Assembly: GCA_947450325.1 (NCBI GenBank)
Contig: CANFUT010000008.1
Coordinates: forward strand, 30,211-94,210
Origin: Flavobacteriia bacterium
GTDB taxonomy: Bacteria; Bacteroidota; Bacteroidia; Flavobacteriales_D; Crocinitomicaceae
Reading direction: 5' to 3'
Length of the DNA: 64,000 nucleotides
The notes beneath the pieces were generated by a model. It made no database searches and was not told where the DNA came from. It saw only the letters and a list, made by a program, of their open reading frames with translations. This document shows, piece by piece, positions 3,426-19,284 of this stretch (positions within the stretch are counted from its first letter, which is position 1; every line of letters starts with the position of its first letter). A program made the position numbers and the translations under genes.

Positions 3426-3528
3426 AAAATTGAATTTGGATGAATCTATAAATACTTAAATGTATGTTTTACAATGTTTTAGCATTCATCTAAATTCATC
3501 CAAATTTAATCAAATTCACCTTTGGTTA

Positions 3529-3543
3529 ACTAAATGTTGACTA
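3529..3543 (+). repeat. putative attL core (ACTAAATGTTGACTA)
   Basis: Exact 15-mer repeated at 19215-19229; positions were read directly from the sequence. Confidence 0.7.
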
Positions 3544-3588
3544 GAATACTTTTTTTGTTTACATTTGACTTGTTTATAAAACAATAAT

Positions 3589-4818
3589 ATGGCAACAATA
3601 AAGTACTTACTTCAAAGTGATAAGGAAAACTCAAATATATATCTTCGATACTCAGTTGGAAGAGCTTCTGTTTGGAAAAGGAAGACAGGTTTTGTTATTA
3701 ACTCAAAAAATTGGAGTGTAGACAAAGCTCAACCAATACAAAAAACAGATGAATTAAAAGCTTTAAAATTTAAGTTAGACAAGTTAGCTATTTTTATAAA
3801 TGAGGCTTATAATAAAGCAATTAGCACAGGCGATGAAATTGATGGTGATTGGTTACAATACCAGATAGATTTATTTAATAATAAAATCGTTGTTGTTGAC
3901 CTAGATGTATTAACTAATGCTATTGATTATTACATTGCTAAAGGCGACAAATTAACAAGCGGTTCAATTAAAAATTTAGAGAACTTTAAAATATTTTTCA
4001 TTAATTATGAAAAAGATTGTTTGAGAGGTAAGTCAATTTTGATTCGAAATATCAATTTGAATTTTATTGATACTTTTAAAAGTCATTTTTTGCAAAAAGG
4101 TTATTCGCCTAATTATATTGGTACTTATTTATCTTTACTAATATCAGTAGTAAATAAAACATCATTAAGCGGAATTCCTACACATCCAGAGTTCAGTCAA
4201 ATTAAAGCTATAAAAAAAACAAAAGAACCAGATGAAATAATCATTCTAACCGAAGAAGAACAATTATTAATTAAAAATACAGAATTAACACGTGAAGCTT
4301 TAATTAATGCAAGAAAGTGGTTGTTATTAGGTTGTTTGATTGGGCAGAGAGCTGGTGATTTGCTGAACTTAACCGAGAATAATATTAAAGAATATAAGGG
4401 TGTTAAAGTAATTGAGTTAAAACAAAAAAAAACTGGAAAGTTAATGTCGATTGGTTTGTTTCCAGATGCAGTTGAAATTATTGAAAGTGGGTTTCCTTAT
4501 AAAATTAATTTAGAGCATTTTAATAAATATTGTAAAGAGATTTGTAAAGAGGCTAAAATTAATACTTTGGTAAAAGGTAAAATGCGAATTAACAATACCA
4601 GAATCTTGACCCCTGGTGTTTATGAGAAGTGGCAAGTTATAAGTTCTCATGTTTGTAGGCGTTCATTTGCTACTAATTTTTATTCTAAAATACCAACACC
4701 TTTTTTAATGAGTGCCACAGGACACAGTACAGAAGAAATGTTTCTACGATATATAGGTAAAGCTTCTAATGAGAATGCTTTTCAAATGATTGATTACTTT
4801 AATAAGATAAATAATTAA
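3589..4818 (+). CDS. tyrosine site-specific integrase (Bacteroidota phage-integrase type)
   Basis: 409 aa with C-terminal catalytic signature 'GQRAGDL' (Arg), 'HVCRRSFATN' (HxxR) and 'GHSTEEMFLRYI' (His..Tyr). The N-terminal half is typical of arm/SAM-like DNA-binding domains. Confidence 0.9.
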   Translation: MATIKYLLQSDKENSNIYLRYSVGRASVWKRKTGFVINSKNWSVDKAQPIQKTDELKALKFKLDKLAIFINEAYNKAISTGDEIDGDWLQYQIDLFNNKIVVVDLDVLTNAIDYYIAKGDKLTSGSIKNLENFKIFFINYEKDCLRGKSILIRNINLNFIDTFKSHFLQKGYSPNYIGTYLSLLISVVNKTSLSGIPTHPEFSQIKAIKKTKEPDEIIILTEEEQLLIKNTELTREALINARKWLLLGCLIGQRAGDLLNLTENNIKEYKGVKVIELKQKKTGKLMSIGLFPDAVEIIESGFPYKINLEHFNKYCKEICKEAKINTLVKGKMRINNTRILTPGVYEKWQVISSHVCRRSFATNFYSKIPTPFLMSATGHSTEEMFLRYIGKASNENAFQMIDYFNKINN

Positions 4819-4824
4819 AAACTT

Positions 4825-5544
4825 ATGACCGAATTTGAATTGTTTGATTTTTTTGAGAATTACGAGCATCAACCTCCTTTTTTAACTACAAAAAAAATCT
4901 ATGAGCTAACTAATAATCTCGATTTACATTTGTTAGTTGCTTTGCGTAAAGACTTTAGAAGGTACTATTTGAAAAAAGCCTTACAACTTGTAAAAGATTT
5001 TGAATCTGGTGTTCCAGGAGAGTACAATTATAAATATAATATGGGAGTTAATTTAATTCAAATATATAATAACAATAGGATTGATAAAATTAATATCACG
5101 AACGATACTCTTGATAATATTGTTTGGTCACTTTCTGAGAAAGATTTTGATTTAGCCGAAATTATCTTTGAAGGAATGGCTGATTTTCTATTTGAGATTG
5201 ATGAATTGATTAGATATAAAGAAAGCGGTTTTACTAAACTATCAATAGAAGCAGAAGACGAACTAATTGATTATAGTGAAAGTAATTATTCTTCTAAAAT
5301 AATCTTTTTAGAAAAATTAGGTGTAATCAAATTTCTTAAAGAAAAAACTCCGTTTAACACTTCAACAAACAGTTTAGCTAACGCTCTAAGCGGCGTTACA
5401 GGGGTAAATCCTTCAACCTTACAACCAATGTTGAACGCTATGTTAAGTGATGGTGTATCAATAAAAAACAATCCTTTAAAATCAAAAAAAACTGTAAATA
5501 TTGTATTAACTAAGTTGGCAAATATTGGATTCAAAATAGACTAA
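4825..5544 (+). CDS. hypothetical protein (island-encoded)
   Basis: 239-aa ORF starting 7 bp after the integrase stop on the same strand. No motif recognised. Confidence 0.5.
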   Translation: MTEFELFDFFENYEHQPPFLTTKKIYELTNNLDLHLLVALRKDFRRYYLKKALQLVKDFESGVPGEYNYKYNMGVNLIQIYNNNRIDKINITNDTLDNIVWSLSEKDFDLAEIIFEGMADFLFEIDELIRYKESGFTKLSIEAEDELIDYSESNYSSKIIFLEKLGVIKFLKEKTPFNTSTNSLANALSGVTGVNPSTLQPMLNAMLSDGVSIKNNPLKSKKTVNIVLTKLANIGFKID

Positions 5545-5706
5545 ATTTTATATATATTTCCATTAATGAATAATATCTCAACATTCATTTTAGCCATAAT
5601 TCGTTCCTTTTATTGTTGGGTCAACCTATTTGGGTCGAGGACCAGAAAAATATGTTTTGTTTTTCTAACTGATGCGTGATTGCGATTCGAGTCTTTTTCA
5701 TGTCAA

Positions 5707-6009
5707 TTAGTTTAAACAAAATTCATAGTCAATCCCTAACATGTTTTTCTTCTTGTGGAAGTGGAGCATCAGATAAATGCTTCCGTTCTCGACCATAAAT
5801 TTGAAATACAGAACGTTACTTATGTATTTACCGAAAACTTTTCCAAGTTTACTTTGGTCGACTAGAATGTTTTCGGGTAATCGAAATTCAATCAACGTTT
5901 CAACGGGTGACGTTCCAGTAAGTGTCATATCACTGTACACTTCAAAGTGATGACATTTGTACCGCCTTGCAAGTTCCATATAGATTCTTGATAAGTTTAC
6001 TCCGAACAT
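5707..6009 (-). CDS. hypothetical small protein downstream of the serine recombinase
   Basis: 100-aa ORF overlapping the recombinase stop by 13 nt (possible coupling). No motif recognised. Confidence 0.3.
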   Translation of the reverse strand: MFGVNLSRIYMELARRYKCHHFEVYSDMTLTGTSPVETLIEFRLPENILVDQSKLGKVFGKYISNVLYFKFMVENGSIYLMLHFHKKKNMLGIDYEFCLN

Positions 6010-6743
6010 ACAATTACTTTTTTTCTGATTTTTGCTACGGTTGCTAATGAAACATCATAAAGCTTAACACATTCTCTGACACTAAATCCTTTCTTCAACC
6101 CTTCGACCACTTTTGGGTATTTGGAAATGAAAATAGCTTCTTCTTCCTTGCTATTCTTTGGTCTACCACAGTGGATATTTTTCGCTTTGGCTTGATTCAT
6201 ACCAGACCGAATCCTCTCAATTAGGTTTCTGCGCTCGTTCTTTGCGAAAAGGCTAAGCATGTGGAGCATCATTTCTGTTTGGAAGCTGATTTCGCCTTGT
6301 TCATTCAACGTTTCTGTGTTAAGGTCTTGGAGGTAAATGCTGATACCTTGTTGATGTAGCTCTTCAACTAGCTTTAATGTTTGAATCGTGGAGCGACCTA
6401 AACGAGATACCTCAGAACACAGTACTTTTTTGAACTTTCCATCCTTTGCCTCAGCAAGAAGTTGTTGAACTCCTAATCTTTCGTGATTGTCTTTTGCGCC
6501 CGAAATTTTTTCTGAGATAACGCTAACAACTTCATAGTTGAATTTATCGGCAACTTTTTTGAGGTCGGATATCTGTCGATTGAAGTCCTGTTCATCCGAA
6601 CTTACTCTGGCAAAAATAGCCACTGGAATTTTTCTCATACTGTTATAAAAAAAGGGTTTAACAATATCGAGGTCATTTTGCTGGGATTGAACCACCTTTT
6701 TTGTCCTCTTTGCTGTTATGCCAAAAGGTTTTCCTTTTTTCAT
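5997..6743 (-). CDS. serine recombinase (resolvase/invertase family)
   Basis: 'VAIFARVSSDEQDFNRQISDL' contains the catalytic Ser motif, with 'SRLGRS' and a C-terminal HTH 'SVRECVKLYDVSLATVAKI'. The probable true start is the internal ATG at 6638 (MRKIPVAIFARVSS). Confidence 0.85.
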   Translation of the reverse strand: MKKGKPFGITAKRTKKVVQSQQNDLDIVKPFFYNSMRKIPVAIFARVSSDEQDFNRQISDLKKVADKFNYEVVSVISEKISGAKDNHERLGVQQLLAEAKDGKFKKVLCSEVSRLGRSTIQTLKLVEELHQQGISIYLQDLNTETLNEQGEISFQTEMMLHMLSLFAKNERRNLIERIRSGMNQAKAKNIHCGRPKNSKEEEAIFISKYPKVVEGLKKGFSVRECVKLYDVSLATVAKIRKKVIVCSE

Positions 6744-6760
6744 AACAACTTTGTAAAGAT

Positions 6761-6807
6761 TCCAGGTATTTTTGGATTACGCAAGAAATCGGACTAAAAT
6801 CCTGGAT
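6761..6807. promoter_or_regulatory. imperfect palindrome upstream of the serine recombinase (possible res/operator site)
   Basis: TCCAGGTATTTT (6761-6772) faces AAAATCCTGGA (6797-6807). The arms match 11/12 with a 24-nt spacer. Confidence 0.3.
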
Positions 6808-6856
6808 TTCAATTAAATAAAATATTTTAACCCGATATTTATCTATAAAACGAACT

Positions 6857-7258
6857 ATGAAAAAACAAACAATAAAATTGGATTGTGGTCACGAAGTTGA
6901 AGTAATCGCAATTGACATTAGAAGAACTTACGGTGAAATTTTGGTTGGGTCACCGTGCTTTGAGGATAACTTTCATGTATATGAAAATCTGAAAGCACCA
7001 GAGTATTGGGGAAAGCGTAAAACCGTGATGAATCAAGAGAGTTTTAACTTAGATTTGAAACACTTCAAGAAATACACCGTTTATCTTTGGCTTTCTTCAA
7101 GCAAAAGTATTGATGACCCGTTTCAAAAATTCGATGGTTCTGAATTGGTAGTTGTTTGGGCAATAGATGACCTGTTCTCATTTTCAATCAATTCACTAAT
7201 TGAAGAAGGCATCAAAGATTTTGATTGGGAAAGCTATGCTATTAATTTAGAATTATAA
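6857..7258 (+). CDS. hypothetical protein
   Basis: 133-aa ORF divergent from the recombinase. No motif recognised. Confidence 0.45.
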   Translation: MKKQTIKLDCGHEVEVIAIDIRRTYGEILVGSPCFEDNFHVYENLKAPEYWGKRKTVMNQESFNLDLKHFKKYTVYLWLSSSKSIDDPFQKFDGSELVVVWAIDDLFSFSINSLIEEGIKDFDWESYAINLEL

Positions 7259-7272
7259 ATGATTTATTGGTC

Positions 7273-7455
7273 TCATTTTTCTATTAATTTCTCATTAATA
7301 TCATAACTTTCAATTATTGAGTTTTTTAATTTCAGATTTTCATTTATTTTGACATTGTTATTTGGTAAACTATTGTTATTACCGTTGCTTTGTTTATTAC
7401 TAGAAATTAATGCAATTATATAAAAAGAAAAAATATTAGACTTAGTAGTATTCAT
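7273..7455 (-). CDS. possible small membrane protein (60 aa), translationally coupled to the upstream MORN gene
   Basis: Its ATG overlaps the MORN-gene stop (TAATG). It has one hydrophobic segment 'IFSFYIIALISS' and a low-complexity Asn-rich tail, so it may be spurious. Confidence 0.3.
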   Translation of the reverse strand: MNTTKSNIFSFYIIALISSNKQSNGNNNSLPNNNVKINENLKLKNSIIESYDINEKLIEK

Positions 7456-9095
7456 TATTTGAAAAATAAGTCATTAGCAAACTTCCCCTCTGTATTTAGT
7501 TTATCTACTATAATTTGAGGATAAAAAGAATAATCTTCACCATAACTGACTATTCCACCTACAGATATAATAATGTTATTGTTTGCATCTAAATTAATTG
7601 TTTGAACCATTGCATTTTTTTTAGCAATTACTTTACTACAGCAGATTTTTTGCGTCAATTTGTCTACAACAATAATTTTGGGGTTTGGAAATCCTTTATA
7701 ACCAGAATTCTTTGTAAAACCTCCTATTATAATGAAATTTTCAAATTCGTTAATGTGTTTGATTTCAATGTCATTTAATGTTATTGACCAAGATTTTTCA
7801 ATATTTTTATTGTAAAAATCCAATGTAATTTCATCATTTACTTTGTAATAGTTTGCAAATTCATTTGAATATGGCAAATAAAAATACCCTCCAGAAAAGA
7901 TTTCTTCATTTATTATTCTATTTTTTTCCAAATATTTACCTCGATTAAAAAACGAATTAGATTTAATTTTTGTAGAATAATCTAATTTGTTAATAATTAT
8001 TGGCAAAACAAATTCTCCATTTACAGCTCTCAAAAAAACGTATATGTAGTTATCATTTTGGATTATATTTGAAATAGAATAAAAATTCGTTTCGTATGAT
8101 GCTCCATTTTTGTTTCCCTTATATTTTAAACATATTCCTTGGGTAGCATTGATTCCTAGATTTATAAATGACGATGAAATTTTTGTTAGGTCAATTTTTC
8201 GATATTTAATTGCACTTTTATACTCACATATAAATAAATAGGTTTTATTATCATAAGTAGATTCTGCAAGAAACCCAGCGATACCATTTCCTAATTTTAC
8301 AACTCCAGTTTGAAAAGTCTCAATTTCACCATTATTTGATTTTAGCTCAAACTTATCTAGAATTTTATCTTGTGTAAAAGTTGGAATATCCGTACCATTT
8401 TCTAAATGAATTTCATTTAATTCAACATATCCATTTTTTTGGGAAGAGAAATAGACAGAATTTAATTTGCTTGAATTACAATCATAAATATTTATTTCTT
8501 GTGAATTGTAATAAAACTTAGAATCATTTAATGGCGTTTTTAATTTTCTTTCTCCGTACAGGTCACTTATTTTGTTTTCAAATCTGTTAATACTAATTAA
8601 ATGATTTCCATAACTATCCATAAAACCATCTGTGGGAACACCAAACATAATTGATAATATACTTTTATCATTTGAAATAGTACTTCTAAATGATTTCAAA
8701 TTATATCTATATTCTTTCTGAATTGGGTCTGCATATAAAATAATATTATAATTCGCTCCATCAATTTTTGTATAATCTAATGTTTTAGTCGTCACAGGAA
8801 TTTCCTTATCACCAGAAAAATATTTAAAACTTACACAGACATTATTTTCCCATTTTCCTATTCTATAATCTCCATTAGCATAATAATATGTTGCGTCTCC
8901 ATCAAACTTATCAAGTTTCCAATTTCCAGAATATCTATCGCCATTATTGAAATAGTAATTTCCAAATCCATTTCTATAACCGTTTAATAAATTACCAATG
9001 TATTTATCACCATTCATATATTTAATAGTGTCTTGAGAATAACATGAAAAATTTATTAAAAGAACTGTATAAATTGTAAAAAATATTTTTTTCAT
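7455..9095 (-). CDS. secreted MORN-repeat protein with large uncharacterised C-terminal domain
   Basis: Signal-like N-terminus 'MKKIFFTIYTVLLINFSCYS'. Tandem MORN units follow: 'YMNGDKYIGNLLNGYRNGFGNYYFNNGDRYSGNWKLDKFDGDATYYYANGDYRIGKW'. Confidence 0.75.
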   Translation of the reverse strand: MKKIFFTIYTVLLINFSCYSQDTIKYMNGDKYIGNLLNGYRNGFGNYYFNNGDRYSGNWKLDKFDGDATYYYANGDYRIGKWENNVCVSFKYFSGDKEIPVTTKTLDYTKIDGANYNIILYADPIQKEYRYNLKSFRSTISNDKSILSIMFGVPTDGFMDSYGNHLISINRFENKISDLYGERKLKTPLNDSKFYYNSQEINIYDCNSSKLNSVYFSSQKNGYVELNEIHLENGTDIPTFTQDKILDKFELKSNNGEIETFQTGVVKLGNGIAGFLAESTYDNKTYLFICEYKSAIKYRKIDLTKISSSFINLGINATQGICLKYKGNKNGASYETNFYSISNIIQNDNYIYVFLRAVNGEFVLPIIINKLDYSTKIKSNSFFNRGKYLEKNRIINEEIFSGGYFYLPYSNEFANYYKVNDEITLDFYNKNIEKSWSITLNDIEIKHINEFENFIIIGGFTKNSGYKGFPNPKIIVVDKLTQKICCSKVIAKKNAMVQTINLDANNNIIISVGGIVSYGEDYSFYPQIIVDKLNTEGKFANDLFFK

Positions 9096-9191
9096 ATAAA
9101 CTGATTAACTTTCCTTACCCTTGTATTTCCAAGGGAATAATTTTTGTTGAGACTTATTATTGATTTTTCAATCCTTATTTGGTGTAAACAT

Positions 9192-10262
9192 TTAATTTGG
9201 AATATAATATCCTTTCCCAATCAATGTTATTATTGATTTTTTTGGCACTTTAAAAACAAGGTCAATTTGACTTCCTTTTTTTAAGGTTAAATACTTGTTA
9301 TCATCTAATAATAATTCGGTATTATTTTTTGTTTTTATGGGTTTAATTATTTTATTATTACATTCTAAGGCTAAATAGTTAATGTAACTAACTTCCTTTT
9401 TTTCTTCTTTGATTCGAACAATTAATTCTTCTGATTTAGAAATCCCTATATTTAGCTTTTGTGTCTCTTCTGATTTTTTACCAATTAAATTTCTAATTAT
9501 TTCACCTTTATATATAAATCTGTTTCCATTTTTTACATAAACAAAAGGACATGCGGCTATTATTTCCGACTCTTGACCTATAGATATTTCAATGTTCTCG
9601 ATAAAAAACTTGTTTAATCGATATTTGCCAATTGTTTCTGGATTTCTATTGTGAATTATATCAAACTCTTTATCACGAAAATTTATTACCCCACCACTAT
9701 AACCAGAACTTGTGATTTGTGTTTGGGTAATTAAATTTCTACCAAAATTTCTATAAATTAAATGTATTGCTGAAGGGTCTTCTACAGCTTTTTCATATTG
9801 TGTAACTAATAATTCTTTTAAAGAATCTGATTTGTCAATATCTATGATTTTAAATGAGACTTTATAGTTAGAATCATTTGAAATAGACCGATTCAATATA
9901 ATATCCTCTGATAAATCATTAATAAATACTCTAGCCAAATATGCCCCGTAAGATTCTTCATCATTTTCTTTTTTTTGAAAGAAATTTTCATCTAACACAA
10001 CAACTTTAATTTTTTCATTTATTCCGTCACCATTTAAATCTTCGTTATTAGATTGCCATATTATTTGAGTTGAATCAACTCCTTTTCTGTAGCTCTTTAT
10101 TAAAAATTCACTATTATCATCACGTTCTTTTAATAATTCACTTTCATCGTACTGAAAATCACTTTCAGAAATATCATTTTTGCACGAGCAAACTGTCACT
10201 ATAATAAAAAATAGCAACATAAAATTCATTTTATTATCGTTTAACAAATTCATATTTAACAA
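9192..10262 (-). CDS. hypothetical lipoprotein
   Basis: Lipobox-like 'MNFMLLFFIIVTVCSC' (likely start at 10229) and a 'DLNGDGINEKI' calcium/FG-GAP-like motif. It lies in the same operon direction as its neighbours. Confidence 0.6.
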   Translation of the reverse strand: MLNMNLLNDNKMNFMLLFFIIVTVCSCKNDISESDFQYDESELLKERDDNSEFLIKSYRKGVDSTQIIWQSNNEDLNGDGINEKIKVVVLDENFFQKKENDEESYGAYLARVFINDLSEDIILNRSISNDSNYKVSFKIIDIDKSDSLKELLVTQYEKAVEDPSAIHLIYRNFGRNLITQTQITSSGYSGGVINFRDKEFDIIHNRNPETIGKYRLNKFFIENIEISIGQESEIIAACPFVYVKNGNRFIYKGEIIRNLIGKKSEETQKLNIGISKSEELIVRIKEEKKEVSYINYLALECNNKIIKPIKTKNNTELLLDDNKYLTLKKGSQIDLVFKVPKKSIITLIGKGYYIPN

Positions 10263-10264
10263 AA

Positions 10265-10774
10265 TTAATAGATTACAATAGGCTCAGTGTTCCTATATGA
10301 AGTGTCAAAACCTTTTGACCAACTTTCTTTCAGAATTGTAACTCTTCCTTTGTTTTGAATGACGTAATAAATATTTATTTTAATTTCTTCTTCACCTCTG
10401 TTATTAACTATTTTGCTTTCAATAACAGCTTTTTTTAAGATAATTTCACCTCTATATTCTGGTGTAGGAAAGCTTTTAACCTCCTTATTATTTGAAATAT
10501 CAACATATAAATCATCTACAAAGTTTTGACCAGCCATATCTGTAGATTCACAATTAAAAACATCAATAATTGTTTTTTCATTCTTCTTGTTCTCGTAAAG
10601 AACATAGCACTCTCCATTTCCAAAGTCAGAAGAATTCACATTGTATTTTGTAATAAATGAAATTTGATTGTCAGTAGTCTGATTTAACTTGTCATCAGCT
10701 TTTTTGTTATTGCACCCAGTTGTCAATAATGTGATTAATAGAAAAAAGAAAAAGTTTAATTTAGGAAATAGCAT
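10265..10774 (-). CDS. hypothetical lipoprotein
   Basis: 'FFFFLLITLLTTGCNNKK' lipoprotein signal. The gap to the next gene is 2 bp. Confidence 0.6.
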   Translation of the reverse strand: MLFPKLNFFFFLLITLLTTGCNNKKADDKLNQTTDNQISFITKYNVNSSDFGNGECYVLYENKKNEKTIIDVFNCESTDMAGQNFVDDLYVDISNNKEVKSFPTPEYRGEIILKKAVIESKIVNNRGEEEIKINIYYVIQNKGRVTILKESWSKGFDTSYRNTEPIVIY

Positions 10775-10856
10775 ATTTGAATCTTTTAAAGAAACAAAAG
10801 TATTAATCTAACTAGAAGCAAATTCCATCAATTAGTTAACGTATGGATTTCGTAAT

Positions 10857-13800
10857 TTATCGCAAAGGAATTGTAACGACTACAGTAGTGCCTCCTTTCG
10901 AATTTTGTTGAATATCAATCAATTTAGTGAAGGATTCATTAAGTAGATTTATTCTTTCGTTTACTAAACGAATCCCTTTTGATTCTTTCGAATGTAATTC
11001 TTTTGAATCTATTCCTTTACCATTATCAACTATTTGACAAATCAAGCTTTCATATTGGATTTCAAAGGCAATTGTAACTTCGGGTGCTGTTGATTTAGCA
11101 TCAAACGCATGCACAAAAACATTTTCTAAAATCGGTTGTATTAGCATCGGAGGAACTTCTATCTCTTGAATATCGATATTTGGAGTTGTTACAATCTGAT
11201 ATTTAACTTTTATTTTTCGTCTTAAATTTTCAAGCTCAATATATCTCGTTAAATACTCAATATCTTCATTTAATCGAACACTCGTTCTTTGTGAAAAATT
11301 CAAGGTTTGTCGCATCATTTTTGAAAATTCTCCTATGTACCAAAGTGCATCATCGGTTTGATTATCAATTACAAAATTCTGGATGGAGTTCATGGCATTA
11401 AACACAAAATGCGGATTCATTTGACTTTGTAATGCTTGCAATTTCGTTTCGGCAATGCGTTTCTCTAATTCAGCTTTGTGTTTGATATTTTTGATTTTGC
11501 GTTTTACATAAATGAAAATCGTAACAATTAAAACCAAAGCCAAAAACCCAATGAACCAACCCGTTTGCCAAAATGGAGGATAAATAGTGAAACTCATTGT
11601 GGTTGGTGCTATAATCTCGTTAGTACCTATGTTCTTCCCCTCAATTATAAGTTGGTATTTTCCACTTTTTAAACCATACAATTTGATGTTTTTTTCAGAG
11701 GTATAAGAACTCCAATTGTCAGTTAATCCAACAATCTTGTATCGGTAATAATTCTTGTTCGAATTATAAATATTGTTGCTGTTAAAGTAAATTTCTAGAT
11801 TGTTTTCATAGTGTTTTAAATAAAGCTTACGATTAATCGAAACCTCTTTTTGATTGATTTTTAGTTGGTTGATTCGAATTGGACTATTTACTTTTTGTTG
11901 TTTTAATATTTTCAAAAGGTCTAAAGAAATCAATCCATTATCGTAAGAAACCAATATTCTTTTGTTTTTATAGTCAATTTGAGCATCGGAATAACGTGAT
12001 AGTTGAAGTCCTTCGTCTCCATCAATGAACTTAACACATTTATAATTTTTTAATAATGTGATTCCTCGGTTCGTACCTACTAGATAGTAGCCACCATACT
12101 GTTGAATAAAGAAAATAGAGTTTCCAATTATTTCTTCATCGGCTAATAAAACTTTCAAATGATGTAGTTTTTGATTTTTCCATCGACTGAAATAGATTTT
12201 CCCGTTAACAGTTCCAGTTATAATGTTTTGCTGGTCATCTACAATAACATCAGTGATATTTTTATCGGATAAAAATCCTAAATCGGTCATTGATTTTAAA
12301 ACTCCTTTTTCGAATAGTAGCAATCCTTTACTATAAGATGCTATCCACAATCCATTTTTTGATTTACTAATCTTTGTAGCATCAACACCGAATGGTTTTC
12401 CTTTATATAGTATTTTCTTGTATTGCTCCAAATTTTGAATTGGGATGCGATAACCAAAATTGTAGTTCTGGCTTAGTAAAATATTTTTTGAATCTATGAA
12501 ATCAAATACGCCTCCCGTCTCTTGAAGATATTGAAACTTAATAATCTTTAAATTATCATTCAAAGCAATTAAACCATAATTGGTCATTGCCCAGATAGTT
12601 CCAAATTCATCTTGCTTGATAGAATTGCAAACAAAGTTTTTTGACTTCTTTAAAAAGATTTTAAGCCAACTATTATCGGAGTCGAATCTGTTTTTGATGA
12701 GTTTCAAAATTTCAGTGGTGAGCTTTTCATTAGTAAGCACTGTGACACCGTTCGTTGGATTCTTTTTAGCTATAAAATTGTTTCCTCCGTACCAAATACA
12801 ACCTTTACTGTCAATCCAAAAACTATTGATTTCGGGTTTGTCTACACCAAGCTCCTCCTTGTCAAAATAACTTATTTTTTGACTTAAATCAATTGCAAAC
12901 AATCCTTTATCAACCGAACCCGCCCATAATTGCTCAGTTGTTTGGTCATAATATAAACACCAAAATTGACTAGTTGGTAAATGCAGTTGCTTTGACAAAT
13001 CGGTTAATTTTCCGTTTTGAAGTTTAAAAATGCCTCCAGTTGGTGTGTTTACCTCCCAACATGATGTGTAAACTGATTTTTCTTTATCCATTGCAAAATC
13101 CCAAATGACAGGACATTTGCCGAAGCTTTGCTTTTGATTTGTTTTAAGGTTTTGAACCTCCAATTCATTTAAAAAATTTCGATTATAAAAATTGTCCCCA
13201 TCAATGAAGCCAGAGTAATTGATTGTTTTTGGGTTACGATATTTTACAACTTTTGAATTTTCTATATTGTTTTTGCTAATCTTTAACTCATAAAGGTTTT
13301 CATGGTTGATACCAAAGATAATTTTACCTCGGTGGTTTGAAATAAAATTTACTTGAAAATTCCCAAATGGATTATTCGTTTTAAAATCAAAGTTTTTAAA
13401 CTTTTTGCCATCAAAAACACTCAATCCGTCCTCTGTTCCAAAGACCATGCAATTGTCTTTTTCAGAAAAATACATGCTTCTGACCGCATCATGAACCAAG
13501 CCTTGTTTTTTAGAGTAATACGTAAACTTTTTGCCATCATATTTAGCAATACCATTTCCGTAAACCGAAAGCCAAATATTACCTTGATTGTCCTCTACTA
13601 TTTTTCGAATCAAATTATATTTAAGTCCTTCTGCTTCTCCAATAATTTTAAAATATGCTCCATCATATAAGCACAAGCCTGTTTCGGTTGCAATCCACAA
13701 TAATCCATTAGAGTCTTTGAATAAGCAAGTAATTGAATTTCCTGGCAACCCATTAGAAATAGTGAAGTTCTTTACGGTTTGTCCTAGAGAAATAAAGAAG

Positions 13801-13859
13801 AAAAAAAAGAAAACAAAACTAAGCGTTTGTTTTTTGAGTAATAGCATTGATAAATTCAT
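10857..13859 (-). CDS. sensor histidine kinase, periplasmic beta-propeller/Y_Y_Y type with LytS-like kinase core
   Basis: Repeated propeller-type segments are followed by the TM 'WFIGFLALVLIVTIFIYV'. The kinase core shows 'QSQMNPHFVFNAMNSIQNF' (LytS/His_kinase motif) and a C-terminal HATPase 'DNGKGI'. The ORF extends to 13919; the signal-like 'MNLSMLLL' start at 13859 is preferred. Confidence 0.85.
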   Translation of the reverse strand: MNLSMLLLKKQTLSFVFFFFFFISLGQTVKNFTISNGLPGNSITCLFKDSNGLLWIATETGLCLYDGAYFKIIGEAEGLKYNLIRKIVEDNQGNIWLSVYGNGIAKYDGKKFTYYSKKQGLVHDAVRSMYFSEKDNCMVFGTEDGLSVFDGKKFKNFDFKTNNPFGNFQVNFISNHRGKIIFGINHENLYELKISKNNIENSKVVKYRNPKTINYSGFIDGDNFYNRNFLNELEVQNLKTNQKQSFGKCPVIWDFAMDKEKSVYTSCWEVNTPTGGIFKLQNGKLTDLSKQLHLPTSQFWCLYYDQTTEQLWAGSVDKGLFAIDLSQKISYFDKEELGVDKPEINSFWIDSKGCIWYGGNNFIAKKNPTNGVTVLTNEKLTTEILKLIKNRFDSDNSWLKIFLKKSKNFVCNSIKQDEFGTIWAMTNYGLIALNDNLKIIKFQYLQETGGVFDFIDSKNILLSQNYNFGYRIPIQNLEQYKKILYKGKPFGVDATKISKSKNGLWIASYSKGLLLFEKGVLKSMTDLGFLSDKNITDVIVDDQQNIITGTVNGKIYFSRWKNQKLHHLKVLLADEEIIGNSIFFIQQYGGYYLVGTNRGITLLKNYKCVKFIDGDEGLQLSRYSDAQIDYKNKRILVSYDNGLISLDLLKILKQQKVNSPIRINQLKINQKEVSINRKLYLKHYENNLEIYFNSNNIYNSNKNYYRYKIVGLTDNWSSYTSEKNIKLYGLKSGKYQLIIEGKNIGTNEIIAPTTMSFTIYPPFWQTGWFIGFLALVLIVTIFIYVKRKIKNIKHKAELEKRIAETKLQALQSQMNPHFVFNAMNSIQNFVIDNQTDDALWYIGEFSKMMRQTLNFSQRTSVRLNEDIEYLTRYIELENLRRKIKVKYQIVTTPNIDIQEIEVPPMLIQPILENVFVHAFDAKSTAPEVTIAFEIQYESLICQIVDNGKGIDSKELHSKESKGIRLVNERINLLNESFTKLIDIQQNSKGGTTVVVTIPLR

Positions 13860-14580
13860 CTTTTTTTCTAATTGAAACTGGGAGTTTTTGCCCCATAATA
13901 AGTTCAACAAATTGCTCATTACCTTTGGTAAATCGCTTGATAAAATTCATGTTTACCAAATAGGATTTGTGAATTCTGAAAAATAGTTCAGAAGGTAAAA
14001 TCTCCTCGAAATGTTTTAGTGTTTTTGAAGTTGTAATACTTGAACCGCTTGTCAAATGAAATTTGGCATAATTATTCTGCGCCTCCAAATAAATGATAGT
14101 ATTGAACTTTACGAATTCAAATCCTGTTTCTGTAGCGATTGCAATTTTTTTATGTGCAGTATCACCCGAATCAATGTTTTCAATTAAAATGTTTAATTGT
14201 GTTTCTTGATTTTCTTTTTTATTCTTCTGTTCAAATCGATTCACTGCTCCCAACAAATCAATATAGTTGATTGGTTTTAACAAATAATCCAATGCGCTTC
14301 TTTTTATAGCGTCAATGGCATACTCGGAATGTGCGGTAGTGAAAATTACCTCAAAATTGATTTCCTTGATTTCTTTAAATAGCTCAAAGCCATTTTTGTT
14401 TGGCATCTGTATGTCCAAAAAAACCAAATCTGGTTGATGTTCTTCAATTGCTTTAACCGCATCATCAATGTTTTCGCAAGTTTTACAAATGTGAAATTTG
14501 TTTGGAAAATAACGCTTAAGCATTTTCTCCAGAAATTCACTTGCATTGTGTTCGTCATCGATTATTATCGTTTTTATCAT
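13819..14580 (-). CDS. LytTR-family response regulator
   Basis: Receiver domain 'IIIDDE...DLVFLDIQMP'. C-terminal LytTR domain 'YLEAQNNYAKFHL...FRIHKSYLVNMNFI'. Confidence 0.9.
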   Translation of the reverse strand: MIKTIIIDDEHNASEFLEKMLKRYFPNKFHICKTCENIDDAVKAIEEHQPDLVFLDIQMPNKNGFELFKEIKEINFEVIFTTAHSEYAIDAIKRSALDYLLKPINYIDLLGAVNRFEQKNKKENQETQLNILIENIDSGDTAHKKIAIATETGFEFVKFNTIIYLEAQNNYAKFHLTSGSSITTSKTLKHFEEILPSELFFRIHKSYLVNMNFIKRFTKGNEQFVELIMGQKLPVSIRKKDEFINAITQKTNA

Positions 14581-14621
14581 TGAGCAAAAGTATAATTATC
14601 TAATTTGTAAATGGAATATGA

Positions 14622-14654
14622 TTAGTTATCGTTGGCTATCATCTAGTTATCGTT
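14622..14654 (-). promoter_or_regulatory. pair of direct repeats with 21-bp phasing upstream of the LytTR operon (candidate LytTR boxes)
   Basis: TTAGTTATCGTT is at 14622-14633 and CTAGTTATCGTT at 14643-14654. On the coding strand they lie about 42-74 nt upstream of the regulator ATG. A TACTTTTG (TAnnTTTG) -7-like box sits at 14585-14592. Confidence 0.5.
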
Positions 14655-14962
14655 TTGCAAATCAGCCAAAAATACAACTGTAAAATAATTTTTCAATTAT
14701 TATTTTCGGAAAAATCAAAAGAGTGATTACATCATTTGATAGTAAATGTTATGGATTTAAAATTTGACTCGTATTTGCTGTAAGGGTCATAGAGTTGGTG
14801 CGTGTGCGTAACAGGTACAAAAAGGTACATTTAAAACGATTAAACGAATGATTTTGCGCCAAAAAATTTACCAAAAATTTTTTATCGAAAACCATCAAGT
14901 GGCGCAATTAGTATCTATACGGGGAAGGGCTACCCGTTTGGAGGGTAACCCAGTTTTAACAG

Positions 14963-15367
14963 TTAAGCTTTTTTTAAATGCTTTCTAATCATTGCAATCA
15001 AGGTCGGAATGATAGGTCTTATATCGATTGAATAGCGAATCCTTGCTGGATAATTATGTATTTGAATTATACTGGTAGAGACTACCCGATTATTGAACAA
15101 CAATACAACAGTAATATGGTCCTCGTCTCTGGTCTTTGAGATATCCTCATTAGTACTGGTTGAATTGTACTTAGAATATAGGTATTTCAAAGTTTCTGAT
15201 TTCAAATGGTTTTTAATCATGACAGTTACTGACCTAATTATATTTATTGCAATTCCGAACTCAACATCATCCTTTTTGAAATTGTGGTCCTCAAAGTAAC
15301 GCTGACAAATTATTTTGCCTCTGTAATTTAGGTTTAATTCGAATTGATTTTTCATGTTTACTTTCAT
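14963..15367 (-). CDS. hypothetical protein
   Basis: 134-aa ORF isolated in a 1.36-kb otherwise noncoding stretch. No motif recognised. Confidence 0.4.
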   Translation of the reverse strand: MKVNMKNQFELNLNYRGKIICQRYFEDHNFKKDDVEFGIAINIIRSVTVMIKNHLKSETLKYLYSKYNSTSTNEDISKTRDEDHITVVLLFNNRVVSTSIIQIHNYPARIRYSIDIRPIIPTLIAMIRKHLKKA

Positions 15368-15485
15368 ATTATTTTAGTTTAAATTAAACCGAAAAATAGG
15401 ACTTTCAATTTGCATGGGCTGGGTAACTTCCTTTAGGTTGGGTAAATAAAACACTAACCATCCTTGGTAGGTTGATGTGGATTTT

Positions 15486-15645
15486 GGCTTCGCCTTAATT
15501 CATTGATTACTATAAAAAGGCTTCGCCTTGCTCTTCGTTGAAGTGAGTATTCGCTTCGCTATTGATATTTATAAGTACAATTATTGTATCAAAAGGATTT
15601 GAAAATTGTTGGCGATGTATCGAAGCCTATGCGAAGATACTCGCT
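15486..15645. repeat. iteron-like GCTTCG(C) repeats arranged as inverted sets around an AT-rich core (origin-like)
   Basis: GGCTTCGCCTT occurs at 15486-15496 and 15519-15529 (33-bp period). TCGCTTCGCT is at 15551-15560, with inverted CGAAGCC at 15621-15627 and GCGAAG at 15631-15636. GAGTATTCGC (15545-15554) is mirrored by GCGAAGATACTC (15631-15642). Confidence 0.45.
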
Positions 15646-15944
15646 AAAACAATTTTCCAAATTCATATCAATATAAAAATACACTCACCTCACGGAGTGT
15701 TTTATTATACTTATATAGTATATGGTATAATAATTACACCTACAATTGGCGTATTTATTATACCATTAAAAGCTTTTTAACTAAAAATTTCAACTTAGAC
15801 TTTACATTTTGGGTCGTAGTGATATATTTATAGATAAGTAATGTGATTCAACTGTACAGACATTGCTTTCGGTTGCTGGGGAGTTAATTACCCCAGCTTT
15901 CCTTACCGAAAAAGGAAAAATAATGAGGAAATAAAAACAATCAA

Positions 15945-16718
15945 ATGAAAAACAAAACTGTTATCAGAAAAGTAAATGTGAACGGTCAGTTCACTACAAT
16001 ACATAATTCAATATTAAGAGACAAGCGATTATCACCCAACGGATTTAGACTACTAGTTAATATTTTGTCAGATTCTGATGAAAATTTCAAACTATCACCA
16101 ACCGTATACTGCGACAGACTTGGAATAACCAAAACGACATTTTTAAATGCAATAACAAATCTCGAAGAATGCGGTTACCTAAAACGTGAAGATTCAAAAA
16201 TAGATAAATCAAAAAATCACTATATAGTTTCCGAATTCGGAAATCTTAACCCAAATCAAGAGACTGATATAGATACTGCGCATTCTGAATCACCTTCAAC
16301 AGAGAACAGTGCTGTAGAATCAAATCAAACACAATCAGAAAAAGATTCTCAAGAGTTTGATGAATATTTATACTCTATAGAAAGATTAATGAATTATGAA
16401 GAATTTGAGAATCTTTTGCTAAATAAATGGGTGCCAGAATTACAAAATGTCAATAAAGCTGAACTAAAAAAACATGTAGATGCTTATCTAGTGGGTTTTT
16501 ACAATGAATGTCTTGCGCTTGCCAAAAATCCAGGGAAGCACCCTAAAGCATTAAAAGACTATAAAGACTTGCTAAAAAAAGAGATTTTCACAAATCACAA
16601 CTTAGAAATTAATGCAAGAAACAAATGGTCTATCTTATCCCTTACAAAACACAAGAAACCTTTTAAAACAGATTTTGAAACAGAAATGGGTGATTACTAT
16701 GAAAACCCAAGAGATTAA
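15945..16718 (+). CDS. hypothetical protein with N-terminal winged-helix/HTH (possible replication initiator or regulator)
   Basis: 'NGFRLLVNILSDS...YCDRLGITKTTFLNAITNLEECGYLKRED' resembles wHTH domains of Rep/DnaD-like proteins. It lies immediately downstream of the iteron-like region. Confidence 0.5.
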   Translation: MKNKTVIRKVNVNGQFTTIHNSILRDKRLSPNGFRLLVNILSDSDENFKLSPTVYCDRLGITKTTFLNAITNLEECGYLKREDSKIDKSKNHYIVSEFGNLNPNQETDIDTAHSESPSTENSAVESNQTQSEKDSQEFDEYLYSIERLMNYEEFENLLLNKWVPELQNVNKAELKKHVDAYLVGFYNECLALAKNPGKHPKALKDYKDLLKKEIFTNHNLEINARNKWSILSLTKHKKPFKTDFETEMGDYYENPRD

Positions 16719-16865
16719 AATTTTTTAAAAAAAATAATTTTAACAGTAATTAAAGGTACTTATAAGCAATTATTAATGTAATGTACATGTAGTTTATTTG
16801 TTGAATAATTCTTTTAGGGAATCCCTAAATTATCCCTAAGATTCATTTGTGCCATAATCTTAAAA

Positions 16866-17144
16866 ATGGTAGATATGAATAACCAAATTTTTTTAAACGG
16901 CATTACAATTGAGCAATTAGCCGAGGCATTAAAATTCTTAATGCAAAATCAAACCAGCATGCAAGAACCTCATCTTGAGAATGATTTTATCACTAGGGAA
17001 GAGGTTTGTAGATTGCTGTCTTTCAATTTAACTAGCCTTTGGAAACACACGAAAAGTGGAAGGTTAAAATCCTACGGTATAGGTAATCGAATTCTATATA
17101 AGCGTTCGGAAGTATTATCAGCGGTTACACCAATTAATCACTAA
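16866..17144 (+). CDS. excisionase/AlpA-like helix-turn-helix DNA-binding protein (HTH_17 type)
   Basis: 'ITREEVCRLLSFNLTSLWKHTKSGRLKSYGIGNRILYKRSEV' is the typical MerR-superfamily excisionase-like HTH. It is 92 aa. Confidence 0.7.
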   Translation: MVDMNNQIFLNGITIEQLAEALKFLMQNQTSMQEPHLENDFITREEVCRLLSFNLTSLWKHTKSGRLKSYGIGNRILYKRSEVLSAVTPINH

Positions 17145-17148
17145 GAAG

Positions 17149-18186
17149 ATGGAAAAGATGAATAATAATTTAGAAAATCTTAGTAAGGTTATTGACTTGG
17201 CTATGAATGAGGATAATCAACAATTCGAGAATCAATCTAATGTTGGGTTGTTTACATCCAAAACTGCAAACAAATGGATTGAAGAAGCAAAAAATCGACC
17301 AATCCCCAAAATGTTGTTTGGAGAGTTTTGGTTTGAAGGAGAGGTTTGTATTTTGTTTTCTGATACCAATTTAGGTAAATCTATTTTGGCTGTGCAAATT
17401 GGAAATAGTATTAGTAAAAATGAAGAAATAAAAGGATTTAGATTAGAAGCACCGAAACAATTGATTCTGTATTTTGATTTTGAATTGTCCGATAAACAAT
17501 TTGAAAATCGATATTCAACTGACTATACAGAACACTACAGCTTTGATGAGAATTTCATTAGAATTGAAATGAATAGTGATGCAATGCTTCCAGATGGTAA
17601 AAACTTTGAAGATTTTCTTATTTTTTCTTTGGAACAGTCAATCATTAACACTAATGCCAAGGTTATTATTTTAGATAATATTACCTTTTTGAAAAGTGGA
17701 ACTGAATCGGCTAAGGATGCACTACCATTGATGAAAGACTTAAAATCATTGAAGAACAAATACGGCTTATCTATTCTGGTTTTGGCTCACACGCCAAAAA
17801 GAGATTTATCCAAAGCAATTTCAAGAAATGATTTAGCTGGAAGTAAAATGCTAATCAACTTTTGTGATAGTTCCTTTACAATTGGAGAAAGTTCTAAGGA
17901 TAAAAATTTGCGATATATCAAGCAAATTAAGCAAAGAAATACTGAGAATATTTATAATGCCGAAAACGTTTGTGTATGTGAAATTAAGAAGCAACAAAGT
18001 TTTCTTGGATTTGAACTTATTGAATATAGTTCAGAAAGTGAACATCTGAAAAATTTTACTGAACAAGACAGAGAGAGTATTATTGAAGAGGTTAAACTAT
18101 TAAGTGATGAAGGCAAAACCCAGAGGGAAATATCAGCAGAACTTGGGATTTCATTAGGTGCTGTAAACAAATATTTAAGAATGTAA
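17149..18186 (+). CDS. AAA/RecA-like ATPase (replicative-helicase-like, AAA_25 type) with C-terminal HTH
   Basis: Walker A 'SDTNLGKS', Walker B 'VIILDNITF' and C-terminal 'TQREISAELGISLGAVNKYL'. Confidence 0.7.
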   Translation: MEKMNNNLENLSKVIDLAMNEDNQQFENQSNVGLFTSKTANKWIEEAKNRPIPKMLFGEFWFEGEVCILFSDTNLGKSILAVQIGNSISKNEEIKGFRLEAPKQLILYFDFELSDKQFENRYSTDYTEHYSFDENFIRIEMNSDAMLPDGKNFEDFLIFSLEQSIINTNAKVIILDNITFLKSGTESAKDALPLMKDLKSLKNKYGLSILVLAHTPKRDLSKAISRNDLAGSKMLINFCDSSFTIGESSKDKNLRYIKQIKQRNTENIYNAENVCVCEIKKQQSFLGFELIEYSSESEHLKNFTEQDRESIIEEVKLLSDEGKTQREISAELGISLGAVNKYLRM

Positions 18187-18192
18187 TATTAA

Positions 18193-19116
18193 TTGTTCAC
18201 GATGTTCACGAATAAAACCATGAACATCGTGAACATTATGAACAAAATCAAAATGAAACAGTATAGATATTTTTTAGACAAAAGCAGTAAAAAGTTTGTG
18301 TGTCCCAAGTGTCAAAAAAGAACCTTTGTAAAATATTACGATTTTGAAACACAGGGCTATTTAAGCGATGATTTCGGTCGATGTGATAGAGAAACCAACT
18401 GTCGCTATCATAATTCACCCAAAGGCTTAATTTGTGGGGCTTTTGAAGTTAAAGAAGCAAGGCAATCTTATCATGATTTTGATTTAGTTAAAAAAAGTTG
18501 TCGCAACCATAAGTCGAATAATTTGATAAAATTTTTGGAAACAATATTTACAATTGATGAGGTTCGAGAGGTTGTTTCAAAGTACTTTATTGGAACTTCA
18601 ATGTTTTGGGGTGGAGCAACAATATTTTGGCAGATTGATAATGAACAAAAAGTAAGACACGGAAAGGTCATGCTATTCAATCAAAATACAGGTAAACGAA
18701 TGAAAAAAGAAGATGGAAAAGCCTATATAAGTAGCATTCGAAGTTTATTAAAGTTAAAGGACTTCAATATAAAGCAATGTTTGTTTGGGTTACATTTAGT
18801 TGGTGAAGAAAACAAAAAGACAATTGCTATTGTTGAAAGTGAAAAGACCGCAATAATAATGAGCATTTTTAAACCAGAGTTAATTTGGTTAGCAACAGGT
18901 ATGAAAAGCGGTTTTAATTTTGAACTACTCAAACCAATCATTAAATATAAAATAGTTGCTTTTCCAGATAAATGCGAATATGATGATTGGTTAAAGAAAG
19001 CAATAGAGTTGAATAACATCGGGTTTAAAATAATAGTCAATGATTGGTTAGAACATACAGATTTTGCAAAGGGGACAGACCTCGCAGATGTGTACATAAA
19101 TTCTTTGATAGATTAG
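18193..19116 (+). CDS. Toprim-domain primase-like protein with N-terminal zinc finger
   Basis: 'CPKCQKRTFVKY...CDRETNCRYH' is Zn-finger-like. 'IAIVESEKTAIIMS' (Toprim Glu) and 'AFPDKCEYDDW' are also present. The likely true start is the ATG at 18238 (MNKIKMKQYRYF). Confidence 0.65.
   Translation: MFTMFTNKTMNIVNIMNKIKMKQYRYFLDKSSKKFVCPKCQKRTFVKYYDFETQGYLSDDFGRCDRETNCRYHNSPKGLICGAFEVKEARQSYHDFDLVKKSCRNHKSNNLIKFLETIFTIDEVREVVSKYFIGTSMFWGGATIFWQIDNEQKVRHGKVMLFNQNTGKRMKKEDGKAYISSIRSLLKLKDFNIKQCLFGLHLVGEENKKTIAIVESEKTAIIMSIFKPELIWLATGMKSGFNFELLKPIIKYKIVAFPDKCEYDDWLKKAIELNNIGFKIIVNDWLEHTDFAKGTDLADVYINSLID
18194..18235. promoter_or_regulatory. perfect 15-bp inverted repeat built from four GTTCAC half-sites
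   Basis: TGTTCACGATGTTCA (18194-18208) faces TGAACATCGTGAACA (18221-18235) across a 12-nt spacer. It sits between the ATPase stop (18186) and the probable primase ATG (18238). Confidence 0.6.
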
Positions 19117-19138
19117 ATATTTACTTAACCGCAATTAA

Positions 19139-19173
19139 GAGAGGGTTTCCAATTTGGAACCCTCTTTTTTTTT
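19139..19173 (+). terminator. rho-independent terminator after the primase gene
   Basis: AGAGGGTTTCC-aattt-GGAACCCTCT is followed by T9. Confidence 0.7.
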
Positions 19174-19214
19174 ATCTTTGACCAATAATAATTTCTATGT
19201 TGAATTTTTTGCTG

Positions 19215-19229
19215 ACTAAATGTTGACTA
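19215..19229 (+). repeat. putative attR core (ACTAAATGTTGACTA)
   Basis: Exact copy of 3529-3543. It is partly reiterated locally (TGACTAAA-TGTTGACTAAA). Confidence 0.7.
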
Positions 19230-19284
19230 AATCAAGTTTAAATATTAGTAAATACGGTATCAAATTACATAGAAGAAATATGTA

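Follow-up and report, generated by a model that had tools for sequence, protein, structure and literature searches.

A 15.9-kb integrative element inserts site-specifically at the end of icmF in a freshwater Flavobacterium and has moved between species without recognized transfer genes

The window examined here is the whole stretch of 64,000 nucleotides taken from contig CANFUT010000008.1 (positions 30,211 to 94,210) of the Flavobacteriia bacterium assembly GCA_947450325.1, and it contains a genomic island whose host is a freshwater Flavobacterium. The island comprises 15,860 bp (~15.9 kb) between two copies of the 10-bp sequence GAAATATGTA, and its GC content is 29.8% versus 34.9% for the genome. 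We conclude with reasonably good confidence that the island is an active, site-specific integrative element that probably replicates itself and is unable to transfer alone, i.e., a 'hitcher'. Comparison of occupied and empty sites, and of copies in different hosts, establishes site-specific insertion, a 10-bp duplication that preserves both flanking genes, loss or gain of the element within a natural population, and recent spread between species.

The ends of the element were set against empty sites, which were sought by searching the joined flanks against 60 relatives. The upstream gene, icmF, encodes a fused isobutyryl-CoA mutase (MM_CoA_mutase, MeaB and B12-binding domains in Pfam) and not the type VI secretion protein of that name, and the downstream gene encodes a GT87 glycosyltransferase according to Pfam. 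The two genes are adjacent in five genomes of the same genus, and where the site is empty the stop of icmF and the start of GT87 overlap (ATGTAATG); the sites of two sister species (G001 and G008) read CGTCGAAACATGTAATGAGAG. The insertion target is therefore the last codons of icmF, which overlap the start of GT87. In the window, the duplicated GAAATATGTA lies at 3415-3424 and at 19275-19284. The attL core (3415..3424) supplies the last icmF codons and the TA of the icmF stop, which reads TAG because the element contributes the G (…CGTC-GAAATATGTA-G AAAATTG…), and the attR core (19275..19284) is followed directly by the original GT87 ATG at 19285 (…ATAGAA-GAAATATGTA-ATGAGAG…). An earlier, sequence-only reading of this DNA had instead bounded a 15.7-kb element by an exact 15-bp direct repeat and had predicted empty sites in which icmF and the glycosyltransferase gene are separated by a single copy of that 15-mer. 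The repeat is real, but the 15-mer is absent from the empty sites of G001 and G008 and from the one described below, which moves the ends outward to the 10-bp repeats. That reading was also correct in assigning the target to a site other than a tRNA gene, as no tRNA was found in window positions 1-26000 and no Rfam family over 3000-20000 at E<=0.1, whereas its placement of the target in intergenic space does not hold for overlapping genes.

Evidence for polymorphism came from Logan contigs of eight public freshwater metagenome runs (X1-X8). In run X5, which contains the same strain, a 4.4-kb contig matches 19275-20500 with 0 mismatches and joins position 3414 to 19275, with 10 letters fitting both sides. 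Read depth in X5 was ~3-6 over the element and ~9-11 over the flanks, i.e., roughly half, and run X7, from the same sample, agrees. Other joints with short sides (21-26 letters), such as one from 4278 to 16714 in X5 and X8, were disregarded as likely k-mer artefacts.

Evidence for spread came from other hosts. In runs X1-X3 the element was recovered with 11-12 differences across its 15.9 kb (99.9% identical), yet the icmF gene of that host differs at 30 of 171 aligned positions (~17%) and the right flank differs from 19286 onward. A nearly identical copy beside a different icmF indicates recent transfer. The Flavobacterium metagenome-assembled genome (MAG) EUL_068 (G101) also carries a related element at the icmF stop, with backbone proteins that are 84-96% identical (integrase 96%, primase 84%), and the MAG GL94 (G102, locus L039) encodes, at this same end of icmF, an integrase with 68% identity. 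Similarity to the G101 and X1 copies stops at 19286. GT87 was not found in G101 or G102, which implies that the right flank there is either different or unassembled. The distribution is sparse: the primase was detected in 9 of 201 genomes of the family, the element's own genome included, and neither primase nor element occurred in any of the nine same-genus species genomes sampled. The left-end pattern of the element was absent from JGI metagenome contigs. These comparisons bear out the view of the sequence-only reading that an integrase-bounded mobile element is present.

The same comparisons point to how the target is recognized. The duplicated core of G101, GACGTAATATGTA, matches G101's own icmF tail, and the attR copy in the window reads GAAGAAATATGTA, which is the icmF-tail type of species G005. 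Together these matches indicate that attP holds a mimic of the icmF tail and that crossover falls inside the mimic. The predicted attP is ...ACATAGAA-GAAATATGTA-GAAAATTGAATTT... and the predicted attB is CGTCGAAATATGTAATGAGAG. In the model that we favor, the tyrosine integrase would recombine the icmF-tail mimic in attP with the overlap of icmF stop and GT87 start in attB, and recombination would duplicate ~10 bp while keeping both reading frames intact.

The icmF/GT87 junction also varies in sister species that lack the element. Three of them (G007, G005 and G009; loci L016, L018 and L019) contain GC-rich hairpin inserts of 55-66 nt at the same ATGTA site, bordered by duplicated AAYATGTA (left, TAG; right, TAA), and in a fourth (G003, L020) the last 27 nt of icmF are duplicated. 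We considered the 55-66-nt insert as a scar of the window element and rejected the idea, as it aligned to the element ends no better than shuffled sequence did; the insert is perhaps a short palindromic insertion that uses the same hotspot.

Inside each end lies a second, distinct set of repeats. Exact copies of the 15-mer ACTAAATGTTGACTA are found at 3529-3543 and 19215-19229, set in from the left end by 104 nt and from the right end by 38 nt; the 15-mer's chance expectation in the window is 0.02, and no further copy exists across the 3.44-Mb genome. It proved to be a portion of two tandem 11-bp units at either end, namely GTTAACTAAAT and GTTGACTAGAA at 3525..3546 (+ strand) and GCTGACTAAAT and GTTGACTAAAT at 19211..19232 (+ strand). 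The same paired subterminal layout, with other unit sequences, was found in seven relatives: G101, L039 (where the unit GGTTGACTAAT occurs twice), a second element of this genome (whose GTGCAAC pairs lie within its tRNA-Arg core repeat), and the viral contigs L102, L103, L104 and L109, where the paired repeats are located in attP regions. Based on this recurrence, we read the 11-bp units as arm-type sites: paired, helically phased and present on both att arms, they resemble such sites in other integrase systems, and in the favored model the GYTRACTAAAT units would be bound by the N-domain of the integrase.

The integration module lies mainly in the left part of the element. The 409-aa tyrosine integrase (3589..4818, + strand; PF13102 and PF00589; phrog_1, 1.6e-23) has an N-terminal extension ahead of its SAM-like domain. 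It is always followed by orfX (u239; 4825..5544, + strand), an all-alpha protein with positional counterparts in relatives and 39 homologues, of which the two with organism names are from Flavobacterium; u239 matched no family in Pfam, NCBIfam, PHROGs or PADLOC, and its AlphaFold2 model (mean predicted local distance difference test score, pLDDT, 81.7) matched no Protein Data Bank (PDB) fold below E=1. On the opposite strand, a 248-aa small serine recombinase (5997-6743, - strand; PF00239, 2.1e-32), whose best NCBIfam matches are of Mpi invertase and resolvase types, probably resolves multimers. The presumed recombination directionality factor is encoded near the other end (16866..17144, + strand) and is a helix-turn-helix protein of the AlpA/excisionase type (HTH_17; PF12728, 9.1e-9; phrog_66 excisionase) that is conserved in relatives and would act as the excisionase.

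The right part of the element resembles a replication module. A winged helix-turn-helix (wHTH) Rep-like protein (15945-16718, + strand) matches DnaD-like and replication-initiator PHROGs and the RepA-like initiator of a Gordonia phage. Together with u134 (14963-15367, - strand) and a 577-bp origin-like spacer, its gene forms a 1.8-kb block (14919..16730) in which GGCTTCGCCTT occurs twice. This block shares 81-87% nucleotide identity with a block in otherwise unrelated islands with large serine integrases (L150-L154), and it is missing from G101, which marks it as a portable module; from sequence comparison, it looks able to pass between tyrosine- and serine-integrase elements. The cargo of the islands that share it consists of a bacteriophage exclusion (BREX) system in L154 and SNF2, DUF4391, methylase, SLFN and ResIII genes in L150-L153. 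Conservation of the spacer argues for a cis-acting function. No family in the four libraries matched u134, and its AlphaFold2 model (mean pLDDT 74.9) had no PDB fold match below E=0.1. In G101, the position of the Rep-like gene is occupied by a 189-aa open reading frame (ORF; L038 8322-8891) with HVH and YLQK motifs, which appears HUH-endonuclease-like by eye and has no Pfam match.

Downstream of HTH_17 are an AAA_25 (RepA/DnaB-like) ATPase with a C-terminal HTH (17149..18186, + strand; PF13481, 2.2e-14; phrog_239 primase/helicase) and a Zn-ribbon plus Toprim-like primase (18193..19116, + strand; Zn_ribbon_16 and DUF6371; PF19898, 3.9e-57; PF21957, 2.4e-21), in which the CPxC..C..C, ESE and PD motifs are invariant across our primase alignment (A2). 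The primase gene is followed directly by a GC-rich hairpin and T run (19140..19173, + strand), read from the sequence as terminator-like, conserved in G101 and marking the end of the replication operon, and then by attR. All backbone ORFs of the element are intact. In the favored model, the excised circle would be replicated from the origin-like region by the wHTH initiator, the AAA_25 ATPase and the primase. We infer replication after excision because minimal relatives were assembled as circles of 6-7 kb, the relative L039 has iterons, and the wHTH protein is homologous to initiators.

Relatives reveal the range of forms that this backbone takes. An IMG/VR scan with the primase alignment returned >521 relatives, and among the 80 surveyed for architecture we found one backbone in five forms. 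The helicase slot varies (AAA_25, DUF3987, superfamily 3 (SF3) D5-type helicase and others). The contigs L102 and L104 (6.05 kb and 7.05 kb) have assembler terminal repeats, i.e., they are circles, and they contain neither a mobilization (Mob) gene nor a gene for the small terminase subunit (TerS). The AAA_25 protein of the window element is 64-69% identical to those of L102, L103 and L104. L103 (IMGVR_UViG_3300000405_001831; 6.9 kb, with circularly permuted gene order) encodes TerS (PF03592, 2.4e-14), and L109 (IMGVR_UViG_3300012942_000311), an 8.67-kb circle, encodes a head-maturation protease, a major head protein and TerS. From their gene content, L103 and L109 look like candidate satellites of Bacteroidota that resemble phage-inducible chromosomal islands (PICIs) and capsid-forming PICIs (cfPICIs), respectively. 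L099 carries portal, head morphogenesis, TerS, large terminase (TerL) and tape-measure genes on the same backbone, and this whole virion module identifies it as a temperate phage. Gut loci pair the same backbone with Mob. In Bacteroides fragilis, the 10,057-bp circular cfxA 'plasmid' CP103138.1, which we identified as Tn4555-like, encodes an excisionase, an AAA ATPase (43% identical to that of the window element), DUF6371 (32% identical), a mobilization protein and an integrase, and pBUN2 encodes an HTH protein, DUF3987, DUF6371, MobC and a relaxase. The resemblance to non-replicating Bacteroides unit (NBU)-type and satellite-type elements that the sequence-only reading had drawn from gene layout is thus upheld by homology.

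Several relatives warrant description of their own. The second element in the same genome is a minimal member of the family, 6.6 kb long (G000:C11:69222-75843; L061 7222-13843), which occupies the 3' end of tRNA-Arg(tct), has the 15-bp core repeat TCCAAACGGGGTCAC at its borders along with paired GTGCAAC subterminal repeats, and encodes an integrase, a 252-aa ORF, an HTH_17-like protein, ORFs of 117 and 400 aa, and a DUF6371 primase. A separate contig of 3,273 bp (G000:C42) bears an integrase gene of this family (product 40% identical); it may represent a third element or else a fragment collapsed at a repeat. In L039, which has an SF3 D5-type helicase, eleven iterons of 21-22 bp (ACCAYTGCAAAAAAA) lie at 15533-16062, directly downstream of the DUF6371 primase. 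In Flavobacterium aquicola GCA_003385115.1 (L157/L158), a u239-like gene precedes an inverted primase-AAA_25-HTH_17 block, the cargo comprises T5orf172, Eco57I and an MmeI-type methylase together with a 187-aa tyrosine recombinase, and no large integrase is present. The 187-aa recombinase, which is also found in G101 and L155, may invert the segment.

We also investigated whether the element encodes or encounters the means to leave the cell. Profile searches covered 21 ORFs, comprising all long ORFs of the element and the short ORFs at 7273-7455 and 15562-15780, with short ORFs nested in longer genes left out; Pfam was run on all 21, PHROGs on 10, and the cargo ORFs were searched with Pfam, NCBIfam and PADLOC. 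These scans recovered the integrase, serine recombinase, HTH_17, wHTH, AAA_25, Toprim primase and cargo that the sequence-only reading had listed, and, in agreement with it, no relaxase, coupling-protein or virion family matched in the 21 ORFs. Prophage families (terminase, portal, capsid, tail and lysis) were likewise absent from the PHROGs and Pfam results. For the four ORFs that it had proposed as possible carriers of Mob, capsid or regulatory domains (4825..5544, 5707..6009, 6857..7258 and 14963..15367), none of the four libraries returned a match. Three Bacteroides Mob proteins used as tblastn queries had no match in the element or genome, and the TerS of L103 had none in the window or genome. 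A helper screen of four marker families in the same genome (99.98% complete) detected no PF03432 relaxase, PF07863 TraJ (CTnDOT-type), PF03237 Terminase_6N or phrog_979 terminase, with positive controls. Among the 10 host genomes examined, PF03432 was absent from nine and PF07863 (TraJ) from all ten. Taken together, these results indicate that any helper must come from outside, and in the favored model cell-to-cell movement depends on something external.

A number of observations weigh against the reading of the island as an active, replicating hitcher. No circular junction (attP), for which the sequence-only reading had proposed PCR or read-pair evidence, was found in the eight metagenome runs, JGI metagenome contigs or IMG/VR, and coverage in the metagenomes showed no sign of over-replication. 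The short side of the X5 contig that shows the empty site extends for only 21 letters, yet these match exactly and agree with G001 and G008. The repeats in the origin-like region are modest, and blastn of that region against 50,697 phage records returned no match. The arm-site role of the 11-bp units draws on their position and recurrence. The NBU1 primase gene lies within the region needed for excision, and the very name NBU denotes a unit that does not replicate (PMC11389934); by analogy the 'replication module' might serve excision instead. The element contains no TerS, Mob or recognizable pac, cos or oriT, and megablast of the whole element against the same phage records found no DNA similarity; given these absences, any statement about the transfer route is a guess. 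The protein roles, replication, transfer route and dependence on a helper remain matters of inference in the model that we favor.

Two rival readings question the boundaries or the mobility of the element itself. If the inner 15-mer were the true att core, the outer 104 and 38 nt would be the fossil of an older element, and the 15-mer is indeed the longer exact repeat and unique in the genome. We consider this reading very improbable, as the deletion in the same population spans the 10-bp repeats and not the 15-mers, the conserved sequence in G101 and X1-X3 includes the outer segments as well as the element, homology ending at the outer core, and the 15-mer resolves into 11-bp tandem units with analogues in seven relatives, one of which is bounded by a tRNA-Arg core repeat. 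Alternatively, the island could be a decayed, immobile remnant, either a defective prophage or a vertically inherited island. The lack of transfer genes and of a detected attP junction would fit such a remnant, as would the F. aquicola relative, which has lost the large integrase and carries an inverted segment. However, the intact backbone ORFs, the presence and absence of the element within one population, the 99.9%-identical copy in a host with icmF ~17% different, and its absence from all nine same-genus genomes sampled leave this reading scarcely credible.

A third rival concerns the route of transfer. The element could be an integrative and mobilizable element (IME) of the iOriT type, without a relaxase, in which the relaxase of an incoming or co-resident conjugative element would nick an unrecognized oriT; the element would then move via the type IV secretion system of its partner, in the way that CTnDOT and CTn341 serve NBU1 and Tn4555. 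The closest characterized homologues, of the Tn4555/NBU type, are conjugatively mobilized (PMC5704250), and IMEs without a relaxase are on record (PMC5704250, PMC11389934). However, whereas a Mob gene follows the primase in the annotated Bacteroides relatives CP103138.1 and pBUN2, the primase of the window element is followed by the terminator and attR, and tblastn found no Mob homologue beside the primase in the Flavobacteriaceae relatives checked. The marker families PF03432 and PF07863 are missing from most or all hosts as described above, and no oriT-like sequence could be identified. We consequently regard this iOriT reading as unlikely, and our estimate is equally low for conjugative mobilization via an unrecognized oriT in general. 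[quoted passage not shown] That the element has no dedicated route, and enters cells by generalized transduction, vesicles or transformation before integrating itself, strikes us as possible and somewhat doubtful.

Placed beside known systems, the element functions in the manner of a minimalist satellite or an IME of the NBU/Tn4555 type, yet it falls outside the definition of each. NBU1 itself targets the 3' end of a tRNA-Leu gene. As in Bacteroides NBU1, NBU2 and Tn4555, the gene order runs from tyrosine integrase through HTH_17 and an AAA ATPase (or DUF3987) to DUF6371, cargo lies between the modules, and the gene whose 3' end receives the insertion is restored; the homology behind this likeness is to proteins of CP103138.1 and pBUN2. 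Unlike that type, the window element has no Mob relaxase and no recognizable oriT, targets the end of a protein gene (icmF) rather than a tRNA gene, and adds a Rep-like/origin module and a serine recombinase, and a CTnDOT-type conjugative element was not detected in the hosts examined by the PF03432 and PF07863 markers. The absence of any type IV secretion, coupling-protein or relaxase match in the element scans, and of PF03432 and PF07863 in the genome, also sets it apart from integrative and conjugative elements.

With phage satellites (PICIs, cfPICIs, PICMIs and marine VEIMEs), the element shares an integrase, an AlpA-type HTH protein, a primase/helicase module, a small size, and variable accessory or defense cargo. 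Serine and tyrosine recombinases occur together in some VEIME subgroups (PMC9618062), PICMIs lack capsid-remodeling genes (PMC10803314), and relatives that share the backbone and encode TerS (L103) or a protease, major head protein and TerS (L109) have been filed as viral contigs. Unlike satellites, the window element has no TerS, capsid-redirection gene or identified pac or cos site, single-protein scans of IMG/VR with its integrase and primase returned nothing for the element, and no helper was identified. It also differs from P4-like satellites in that no head, packaging or capsid-size family (psu, delta, sid) appeared in the PHROG and Pfam scans, with no P4-specific search run, and the only match in the direction of a P4-like alpha primase-helicase is the generic phrog_239 match of the AAA_25 protein.

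Two further systems offer comparison. Tycheposons are tyrosine-recombinase elements with niche-adaptive cargo and optional primase/helicase modules in planktonic bacteria without conjugation systems; their integrase and replication families are other than those of the window element, and their targets are mostly tRNA genes. Tycheposons of Prochlorococcus are cited in PMC11876622. According to PMC6764341, the 10K genomic island of Riemerella anatipestifer was shown experimentally to excise into a circle and has a 53-bp att, and its integrase alone suffices for excision; like the window element it comes from Flavobacteriales, its integrase is IntN1-like, and it inserts site-specifically at tRNA-Arg as does the second element in our genome, whereas a primase or helicase goes unmentioned in the searched text of that paper. 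The general kind of element is therefore already known from relaxase-less IMEs, PICMIs, VEIMEs and tycheposons (PMC5704250, PMC10803314, PMC9618062, PMC11876622, PMC11389934). What is new is the icmF-end target, the connection, within Bacteroidota, of an NBU-type chassis to modules of satellites or phages, and a Rep/origin module held in common with serine-integrase islands whose cargo is BREX or otherwise of the restriction/helicase type.

The remaining genes lie mostly between the integration and replication modules. A 100-aa ORF (5707-6009, - strand) overlaps the serine recombinase gene, the block they form (5707..6743) has a GC content of 35%, and a 133-aa ORF follows (6857..7258, + strand). 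The cargo proper includes, at 7273..10774 (- strand), two lipoprotein genes (169 and 356 aa), a gene for a secreted protein of 546 aa with MORN repeats, and a 60-aa ORF, assigned from lipoprotein and signal sequences in the translations; MORN and Jacalin matches in Pfam were weak, and PADLOC returned no match for this block. A two-component block follows (10857..14580) with a sensor kinase (10857-13919, - strand; Reg_prop, Y_Y_Y, His_kinase and HATPase_c in Pfam) and a LytTR-type response regulator (13819-14580, - strand; Pfam). Upstream of the regulator gene, phased TAGTTATCGTT repeats lie exactly 21 bp apart at 14623-14654; the pair fits a LytTR box pair, which suggests that the cargo is autoregulated. 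In G101, the slot of the two-component cargo instead holds a Type III restriction-modification system (Mod, 670 aa, and Res, 871 aa; L038 3064-7698) along with the 187-aa tyrosine recombinase, so the slot also takes defense genes. In the usual arrangement the start of GT87 overlaps the stop of icmF, and the two genes are probably expressed together; the insertion in the window leaves GT87 downstream of the terminator-like hairpin at 19140-19173, and its expression may have changed.

These findings bear on how islands move in planktonic freshwater Flavobacteria, which mostly lack conjugative elements. The window element provides a tractable case, as its att sites are known to single-base precision, one natural population contains both occupied and empty alleles, the evidence points to very recent transfer between species, and a minimal 6.6-kb relative resides in the same genome; the integrase and attP could also serve as a single-copy integration tool for Flavobacterium genetics. 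As a more speculative proposal, which we offer with considerable doubt, a single Bacteroidota chassis (int, orfX, HTH_17 excisionase, helicase, DUF6371 primase and paired 11-bp arm repeats) would accept swappable modules (Mob, TerS, capsid plus TerS, virion, or none), and the window element would be its 'naked' form, spread by a non-resident and possibly virulent phage via a DNA signal alone and swapping its Rep/origin module with serine-integrase defense islands. A 2023 survey of satellites placed >99.9% of PICIs in Proteobacteria and Firmicutes and leaves Bacteroidota unmentioned (PMC10085698); if the proposal is true, satellites with capsid genes and TerS in Bacteroidota went unreported there. 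The shared backbone ties Bacteroides NBU/Tn4555 elements to phage satellites and suggests that conjugative and phage 'hitchers' are modular variants of one chassis.

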